Part shown: in pieces, positions 51,126 through 51,819 of the stretch
How positions within the stretch are numbered: position 1 is the first letter of the stretch
Layout of the letters: the number at the start of each line of letters is the position of its first letter
Assembly: GCA_045561495.1 (NCBI GenBank)
Contig: JBJKXR010000004.1
Location: 1-59,024, forward strand
DNA from: Flavobacteriales bacterium
Lineage (GTDB): Bacteria > Bacteroidota > Bacteroidia > Flavobacteriales_C > GCA-002722245
Direction of reading: 5' to 3'
DNA length: 59,024 bases
Program-made: the position numbers and the translations under genes
Notes under the pieces: model-generated
Database searches by the model: none
Told to the model about the DNA's origin: nothing
Seen by the model: the letters and a program-made list of their open reading frames with translations, nothing else

Positions 51126-51674
51126 ATGACAAAGGGAAATTTTGAATTTCAGAGTAAATTAAGCATTGGTGATACAATGGCTGAAAACTTAAAGGAAAAT
51201 GTTGAAAACTTAAGAAAAGATAGCTTAAGGGAGAAGTTTAGCGACTTTGAAAATGTTGAACACCGTTTAGAGTTTGTGGCAAATGTCCACGGTATTGAGT
51301 ATATAAATGACTCAAAAGCAACGAACGTAAATTCAACTTGGTATGCACTGGAAAGAATGAAAAGAGAAACAATTTGGATTGTTGGAGGCGTTGATAAAAC
51401 AATCGATTACTCATCACTTCAAGCTTTATCTAAAGAAAAAGTGAGAGCGATTGTGTATATTGGTACCAACAAATCTAAAATCTTTGAAAACTTTTTGGAT
51501 AAAGTTGATATGATTGTAGATGCAGGTTCGATGGAAGAGGCCGTTCAAATGGCATATTATATTGCAGATAAAGGAGAGACTGTTTTGCTTTCCCCTGCGT
51601 CAGCAAGCTTTAATATGTTTGAGAATTTAGAAGAAAGGGGTAATGCTTTCAAACAAGCTGTTAGAAGCTTATAA
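51126..51674 (+). CDS. Stand-alone Mur-ligase C-terminal-domain protein, paralog of MurD domain 3
   Basis: 182-aa ORF 13 nt after murD. Residues from VEHRLEFV to the end align without gaps to MurD IEHRMERV...KL, with about 75 of 139 identical by hand count. NDSKATN and LLSPASASF are retained. The N-terminal and ATP-binding domains are absent. Confidence 0.75.
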   Translation: [182 protein letters not shown]

Positions 51675-51687
51675 AATAATTGCTATT

Positions 51688-51819
51688 ATGGATGAAGTAA
51701 AACCTGATAAAAGTCGAGAGGTGAAGCTCCTTGTTACCATTGTTGCTTCTAGCGTGCTGTTGTTCTTGATTTTTAGTATAGTTTGGGTTATCAAAAGGGT
51801 CAAGGAAGGAGTGTCCTAA
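51688..51819 (+). CDS. Candidate 43-aa single-pass membrane micro-protein
   Basis: ATG ORF not in the track: MDEVKPDKSREVKLLVTIVASSVLLFLIFSIVWVIKRVKEGVS. One hydrophobic helix flanked by charges. It fills the gap exactly, starting 13 nt after the upstream stop and ending 4 nt before the ftsW ATG. Confidence 0.35.
   Translation: MDEVKPDKSREVKLLVTIVASSVLLFLIFSIVWVIKRVKEGVS

Follow-up and report, generated by a model that had tools for sequence, protein, structure and literature searches.

A stand-alone paralog of the MurD C-terminal domain encoded upstream of ftsW in uncultured Bacteroidia

Between murD and ftsW of an uncultured Flavobacteriales bacterium lies a gene, here termed murD', whose 182-aa product we confirmed to be a paralog of MurD that consists of the Mur_ligase_C domain only and has the Rossmann-like alpha/beta fold of Mur-ligase domain 3. 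Within its own subfamily (A), MurD' is conserved beyond MurD, MraY, MurG and FtsW, and in a second subfamily its gene stays with ftsW when the dcw cluster is broken up. We regard MurD' as a pseudo-enzyme that branched off the Mur ligase family and likely acts in the divisome; abundant uncultured aquatic Flavobacteriales would thereby possess a division or cell-wall component that model organisms lack. In full-text literature searches we found neither a stand-alone MurD C-domain protein described nor any report of an additional gene separating murD from ftsW in Bacteroidota, and NCBIfam holds no dedicated model for MurD'. Support so far for a coupling of Mur ligases to FtsW–FtsI consists mainly of gene order, natural fusions and weak in-vitro interactions. 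MurD' offers a small soluble handle on this question, and its partners are directly testable.

A MurD domain-3 paralog in the dcw cluster

The dcw cluster is among the most studied and most conserved bacterial gene clusters. The window, by which we mean the whole stretch of 59,024 nucleotides that was analyzed, carries a complete one on its + strand, with mraW (from about 43763), ftsI, murE, mraY, murD, ftsW, murG, murC, an ftsQ-like gene and ftsA. An earlier, sequence-only reading of this DNA had placed two ORFs, of 182 and 43 codons, between murD and ftsW, and the coordinates and frames that it gave proved correct:

49772..51112, + strand: murD, 446 aa, TTG start; the parent-type gene, with three domains and catalytic residues intact
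51113..51125, no strand: murD–murD' spacer, 13 nt, AT-rich, read directly from the sequence
51126..51674, + strand: murD', 182 aa, ATG start; stand-alone MurD C-terminal protein
51126..51260, + strand: N-terminal 45 residues of MurD', derived from the end of the MurD central domain
51261..51671, + strand: domain-3 fold of MurD', from the Pfam match (residues 46–158), Foldseek and the residue table
51688..51819, + strand: micro-ORF, 43 aa, ATG start; a single hydrophobic helix flanked C-terminally by basic residues (…LLFLIFSIVWVIKRVKEGVS)
51824..52975, + strand: ftsW, 383 aa; Pfam FTSW_RODA_SPOVE, with the NCBIfam FtsW model scoring above the RodA model

Thirteen nucleotides separate the murD' stop from the start of the micro-ORF, and four separate the end of the micro-ORF from ftsW. 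Because the reading frames of murD and murD' differ, MurD' is not a read-through product of murD. Searches of the cluster for promoter-like and terminator-like sites gave no signal above shuffled controls; Bacteroidota promoters are not of the sigma-70 type. In the entire window, the sole Rfam or ARAGORN match was one tRNA, a tRNA-Cys(GCA) at 7191..7262 on the − strand. The protein at the ftsQ position (258 aa, 55434..56210, between murC and ftsA) has no Pfam match recorded in the lineage, and its outgroup counterpart gave a weak FtsQ_DivIB_C match.

BLASTP aligned MurD' without gaps to residues 278–444 of the MurD encoded in the same cluster (79 of 167 positions identical, 47%; E 1e-49). In the stretch VEHR...FKQ, for which 75 identities in 139 positions had been counted by hand, we counted 74 in 134. 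Over its full length, again with no gap, the ORF is colinear with the C-terminal 182 residues of Bacteroidota MurDs, and in many of these a Met occupies the exact position at which MurD' starts (MSIHELALQGKHN...). The N-terminus of MurD' is therefore MurD-derived, contrary to the sequence-only reading, which had found no MurD counterpart for about the first 50 residues. That reading was right that the ORF re-encodes the third Mur-ligase domain only, a point on which profiles and structure model agree. Pfam Mur_ligase_C (PF02875) matched residues 46–158 over profile positions 1–126 of 127 with 45 bits against a cut-off of 28.4, and there was no Pfam match to the N-terminal (MurD_N) or central (Mur_ligase_M) Mur domains, the UDP-binding and ATP-binding domains having been reported as missing. 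The murD equivalog model TIGR01087 gave 163.5 bits, below its cut-off of 211.95, and covered profile positions 288–440 only. Nor could the missing domains fit into the 13 nt that follow murD, and MurD' thus lacks the three-domain architecture of MurD.

The AlphaFold2 model of MurD' (pLDDT 85) begins with a long helix and continues into an alpha/beta domain, the N-terminal 45 residues, with the helix at residues 7–39, being modeled at pLDDT 45–77. When the model was searched with Foldseek, ranks 1–33 were MurD chains, with E-values down to 6e-14, and the best match was domain 3 of MurD 7u35 (rmsd 1.4 Å over 141 columns). Across solved MurD structures, sequence identity to MurD' is 33–36% and rmsd is 1.4–2 Å.

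The full-length MurD of the window scored 416 bits on TIGR01087, above the cut-off, and MurD_N, Mur_ligase_M and Mur_ligase_C were all found by Pfam. Its key residues are all present and domain 3 is its most conserved part, which rules out that MurD domain 3 is degenerating and being replaced by MurD'.

Database records describe MurD' as 'hypothetical protein', 'UDP-N-acetylmuramoylalanine–D-glutamate ligase' or 'cyanophycin synthetase' and, in recent PGAP annotation, as 'glutamate ligase domain-containing protein'; our analysis corrects the labels 'MurD', 'cyanophycin synthetase' and 'hypothetical'. Cyanophycin synthetase has an ATP-grasp domain plus Mur-ligase central and C-terminal domains, and about 850–900 aa. 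MurD' has 182 aa and Mur_ligase_C only, and neither TIGR02068 nor NF010623 matches it, so that the 'cyanophycin synthetase' label in some NCBI records is an annotation error. Other entries mislead in the opposite direction. In ordinary Bacteroidota MurDs a Met is conserved exactly 182 residues before the C-terminus, and frameshifted or truncated assemblies consequently yield spurious '182-aa MurD C-domain' calls (P0105, P0110, P0112, P0115, P0120, P0195, P0198 and locus L009). Entries of this length with 55–59% identity were considered as further stand-alone genes and rejected as ordinary MurD fragments from frameshifted or short contigs, L009 among them. P0097 and P0104 are apparent hybrids of a MurD'-type N-half and a MurD-type C-half. 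The only contig available, L048 (of P0104), has 1.5x coverage, looks chimeric and carries a murD that itself looks mosaic, and the C-half of the hybrid is only 50% identical to the MurD on L048. We rejected these hybrids as evidence of gene conversion; they are most likely metagenome assembly chimeras.

Recurrence, selection and descent

The exact MurD' protein of the window occurs in 41 blocks of a public metagenome contig collection, and gene order was constant in the 23 contigs that we read. A protein search with MurD' returned a graded series of 180–184 aa proteins, from 100% down to about 60% identity, with the constant-length orthologs reaching down to 61%, and a scan of one genome per GTDB species detected murD–murD'–ftsW in about 20 species. 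The carriers are MAGs labeled Flavobacteriales or Bacteroidota, of marine (Tara, Fram Strait) and freshwater (lakes, groundwater) origin. The arrangement murD–murD'–micro-ORF–ftsW recurs in related Flavobacteriales. In the outgroup loci L033–L038, ftsW directly follows murD, as the sequence-only reading had expected of Bacteroidota in general; the expectation holds for these outgroups and fails across a wide range of uncultured Flavobacteriales and Bacteroidia.

Pairwise dN/dS ratios (Nei–Gojobori, with dS saturating in the more distant pairs) are lower for murD' than for any other gene of the cluster: 0.009–0.05 at dS 0.6–2, and 0.009–0.014 in the closest pairs (dS 0.6–1.0), compared with 0.11–0.18 for murD, 0.03–0.06 for mraY, 0.04–0.13 for ftsW and 0.03–0.11 for murG. 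The clean frame of murD' had been taken as a sign of selection, and these values bear that out, selection being far stronger than on murD. Protein identities tell the same story. Between the window and L012, MurD' is 99% identical, MraY 94%, FtsW 91%, MurG 89%, MurE 88% and MurD 85%; between the window and L010, the values are 75% for MurD', 74% for MraY, 65% for MurE, 59% for MurG, 49% for FtsW and 48% for MurD. Within subfamily A, MurD' is thus the most conserved protein of the cluster. The full-length murD genes of the window and L012–L032 change two to four times faster than mraY, ftsW and murG (dN/dS 0.11–0.18), most rapidly in their N-terminal and central domains.

A partial duplication would leave a truncated gene in tandem with its parent, as seen here, and murD' might on these grounds be taken for a non-functional remnant of duplication or recombination, or for an assembly artefact. 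In related Flavobacteriales, however, orthologs proved neither missing nor broken. The frame is intact and the length constant in about 20 species and in four subfamilies, dN/dS is 0.009–0.05, murD' is more conserved within its subfamily than every essential neighbor, and dozens of independent assemblies carry it. Recurrence, constant length and dN/dS effectively exclude a decaying duplicate or artefact, to which we assign next to no probability.

In an NJ tree, all MurD' proteins formed a single clade; within it they branch as the cognate MurDs do, only on much shorter branches. This topology indicates that murD' arose by a single old partial duplication followed by vertical descent; recent horizontal acquisition is ruled out by the agreement of the MurD' and MurD trees.

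The micro-ORF has a narrower distribution. It is present in every marine relative (41–43 aa, 56–100% identity), with a 41-aa version in the more distant L031, and follows the pattern M..KPDKS.E.K.L..I..S.LLFLIFS.VWVIKK.KEG. The freshwater clade has at the same position a single-pass protein of 71–92 aa whose N-terminal layout is the same. In the marine clade dN/dS is 0–0.17, and dN between the window and L012 is 0 at a dS of 0.54; in the freshwater clade dN/dS is 0.09–0.27 for most pairs. The conserved start is ATG 51688, which gives 43 aa; ATG 51643, used by some gene callers to give a 58-aa version, occurs in the window and one relative only. The micro-ORF was not found in L007/L008 (where the spacer is 16 nt), L020, L018/L022 or subfamilies B, C and D. 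It matches no Pfam or NCBIfam family, and in a 5.8-billion-protein database it retrieved close relatives only, unnamed or 'hypothetical'. Judged by its conservation, the micro-ORF encodes a real small membrane protein, a later and dispensable addition in part of subfamily A. It follows that murD' and the micro-ORF do not form the two-gene unit once suggested, since one occurs in four subfamilies and the other in part of one.

The related MAGs L018 and L022, both without the micro-ORF, share a conserved element in the murD'–ftsW spacer (about 3880..3930 in L018 and 4660..4720 in L022), in which a hairpin (GGAAC-TATCCCTTTT-GTTCC) precedes a T-rich tract. This element could be an attenuator, a terminator or the remnant of a lost micro-ORF.

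The wider family and its linkage to ftsW

Genome-scan loci L039 and L040, together with a second protein search, brought to light three more subfamilies in Bacteroidia (B, C and D), again of MurD domain-3 proteins that stand alone, with lengths of 170–190 aa. All sources of stand-alone MurD' seen are uncultured MAGs. A profile search of 1.84 billion representatives surfaced two more divergent stand-alone types; it yields no family count because stand-alone proteins could not be separated in it from MurD fragments and full-length MurDs. Bootstrapped NJ trees, in which long-branch effects are possible, recovered all stand-alone proteins as a monophyletic group in 157 of 200 replicates; support was 199 of 200 for B+C+D and 178 of 200 for A. 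When subfamilies are compared with one another, no gene of the cluster is less conserved than murD' (C versus D: MurD' 55% identical, MurD 66%, MraY 73%), so that the protein is tight within a lineage and shifts greatly between lineages.

In all four subfamilies murD' is the upstream neighbor of ftsW. Subfamilies C (L044) and D (L042) have murD–murD'–ftsW within complete dcw clusters, from mraW to ftsZ. In subfamily B, for which gene order was read from five loci of one lineage, murD' and ftsW form an isolated pair, 3–110 nt apart, outside the dcw cluster. Neither murD nor murG was found near the pair in three unrelated neighborhoods:

Neighborhood 1: ferritin–Hpt, murD'–ftsW pair, PD40 protein
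Neighborhood 2: sigma factor region, murD'–ftsW pair, TolC-like protein
Neighborhood 3: mutS, murD'–ftsW pair, amidase_3

The SEDS partner in subfamily B scores as FtsW, not RodA, with the score pattern of dcw-embedded FtsWs. Of the functions floated in the sequence-only reading, an accessory factor near FtsW is the direction best supported, given that the murD'–ftsW pair persists outside the dcw cluster. In one subfamily-B MAG, the pair is preceded, at a distance of about 170 nt, by a 42-nt tandem repeat (L040 2461..2840; 9 copies, 91% match). The only split pair seen is in a single MAG, where a secreted RCC1-repeat-like protein of 453 aa (L018 3974..5335) is encoded between murD' and ftsW.

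Natural MurD–FtsW fusions occur in Proteobacteria and Actinobacteria, though the two enzymes catalyze non-consecutive steps (Shirakawa et al., 2023, PMC10214165). Fusions and the murD'–ftsW pair alike place MurD domain 3 directly before FtsW, and both argue for a physical or expression link (PMC10214165). The fusions differ in that a complete, active MurD is joined covalently to FtsW (PMC10214165), and they belong to other phyla. In the window the genes are separate, with stop codons and the 43-codon ORF between them, and an intact murD lies upstream.

Residue pattern and candidate roles

We numbered residues as in E. coli MurD and took their roles from the published enzyme, in which N271, R302 and D317 contact ADP and T321, K348, S415, L416 and F422 contact D-Glu (PMC9780078). 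In its own numbering, the window MurD' keeps H46/R47 (HR), N61-D-S-K-A-T-N67, G87-G-V-D-K91, S156-P-A...S161 and R171-G172; both the NDSKATN and the SPAxASF motif reported earlier are present. Subfamily A as a whole shares the HR, NDSKATN, GGxDK, SPAxAS and RG motifs with MurD, and the HR, NDSK, SPA..S and RG loops are retained in all four subfamilies. In the alignment, the equivalents of H301, R302, D317, S318, K319, S415 and R425 are invariant across these subfamilies. Unlike MurD, MurD' has no UDP-binding domain, no ATP-binding central domain and no P-loop, and it therefore cannot be a ligase alone. The GKHN..N ATP-binding motif of MurD is replaced in MurD', as are the equivalents of the central-domain residues H267, N268 and N271 in every stand-alone protein.

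The residues around D-Glu behave differently from one subfamily to another. Of the domain-3 contacts R302, D317, K319, T321, K348, S415 and F422, the window MurD' has all except F422, which is Leu. In subfamily A, the D-Glu contacts lie among the invariant columns: T321, K348 and S415 are unchanged, L416 is Phe, as in Bacteroidota MurDs, and F422 is Leu or Tyr. The K348 equivalent is kept in subfamily A only and is N, D, E, T, S or A in B, C and D, while that of T321 varies in C and D. By alignment, the conserved surface of MurD' is the former interdomain, phosphate-facing side of domain 3, with the D-Glu pocket proper varying across the family.

This variation bears on whether MurD' might be a ligand sensor, its domain-3 pocket taking up D-Glu, UDP-MurNAc-dipeptide or a lipid-linked precursor and the protein reporting supply to FtsW. 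Such a sensor would be consistent with the retention of all published D-Glu contacts within invariant columns of subfamily A and with the adjacency of murD' and ftsW. However, the pocket of MurD is built jointly with the central domain, which MurD' lacks, and the loss of K348 from B, C and D together with the variation of T321 in C and D confines a sensor to subfamily A at most. We therefore consider this role quite improbable, and D-Glu sensing as a general function, which had been proposed from the sequence, does not survive the loss of the Lys348 equivalent from three of four subfamilies. Two still more divergent stand-alone representatives, P0320 and P0341, have lost NDSK or HR, and a single ligand-binding function consequently cannot be universal.

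The invariant residues could instead serve a trans-acting brake, or alternative lid, in which, while MurD is in its open state, MurD' and the enzyme's own domain 3 would compete for the ATP-loaded central domain. D-Glu addition would then be throttled, or the accepted amino acid changed, setting precursor flux, and linkage to ftsW would reflect co-expression only. H301, R302, D317 and K319, which face the central domain and ADP in MurD, are invariant in the four subfamilies, and a closed complex formed by the three subfamilies that have lost the D-Glu contacts K348 and T321 would be unproductive. Full-length MurD also evolves unusually fast in murD' genomes (dN/dS 0.11–0.18), and the MurD level has been reported as a determinant of cell size in Caulobacter and E. 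coli (PMC11870628). By contrast, subfamily B murD' travels with ftsW rather than murD, and a pure inhibitor would have no use for the D-Glu-binding residues, all of which subfamily A retains. On balance, a brake on MurD seems unlikely.

The reading that we favor, and to which we give about an even chance, is that MurD' is a non-catalytic, MurD-derived accessory or adaptor of FtsW that, through the retained active-site face, docks either a Mur ligase or a ligand, be it nucleotide or precursor. We favor it because murD' sits upstream of ftsW even where the dcw genes are dispersed, and because MurD–FtsW fusions provide a precedent. Against it speak the low conservation of MurD' between subfamilies and an FtsW alignment in which no cytoplasmic feature tracks MurD'. 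On this reading murD' goes back to an ancient partial tandem copy of the 3' part of murD, which began at the Met found 182 residues before the end of many Bacteroidota MurDs, and it has since been inherited vertically under very strong purifying selection. Its product would be a non-catalytic protein expressed together with ftsW, assisting the FtsW septal peptidoglycan polymerase as accessory subunit or adaptor. It preserves the 'active-site face' of domain 3, that is, the HR, NDSK, SPA..S and RG loops, which in MurD close over both the product and the nucleotide-loaded central domain. This face may dock onto a Mur ligase, most likely MurD, or onto a nucleotide or precursor ligand, and docking may serve, at the division site, to couple or gate the making of precursors in the cytoplasm. 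MurD' would then correspond to the natural MurD–FtsW fusion proteins, but without their covalent bond, and the 43-aa membrane protein, a later add-on, may help to hold the complex at the membrane. Both the binding partners and the regulatory role are inferred here from gene linkage and residue pattern. Extending the adaptor reading, MurD' could be a hitherto unrecognized, lineage-specific core component of the Bacteroidia divisome in marine and freshwater Flavobacteriales that rank among the most abundant uncultured ones, namely a pseudo-enzyme that binds FtsW and links or gates the Mur-ligase pathway at the septum, with the 43-aa protein as a third partner; we offer this only tentatively, as somewhat doubtful.

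Two known systems invite comparison. HisZ, a HisRS paralog that regulates HisG, is a truncated enzyme paralog kept as a regulatory subunit. Like MurD', it is a catalytically incompetent paralog of an essential enzyme retained under purifying selection; fold and pathway are unrelated, and the analogy concerns mechanism only. MurT, of the MurT–GatD lipid II amidotransferase, also belongs to the Mur-ligase family; its C-terminal domain is a protein-docking platform, and MurT acts on the stem-peptide D-Glu. Its structure, 6h5e, was a weak Foldseek match of the MurD' model (rank 38). MurT is an enzyme subunit that keeps the ATP-binding Mur-ligase central domain, has a DUF1727 C-domain and partners with GatD, whereas MurD' has no ATP-binding central domain. 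The NCBIfam MurT models did not match MurD', and the cluster contains no glutaminase gene.

An alignment of FtsW proteins revealed no cytoplasmic lineage-specific feature that correlates with the presence of MurD'. The subfamily-A FtsWs (window, L007, L010, L017, L020, L022 and L031) have derived motifs in the large extracytoplasmic loop, NYQxNLxxA and PPQA(A/F)SDF, where the outgroups and subfamilies B–D have YQxEQxKIA and LP(H/Q)PYSDF.
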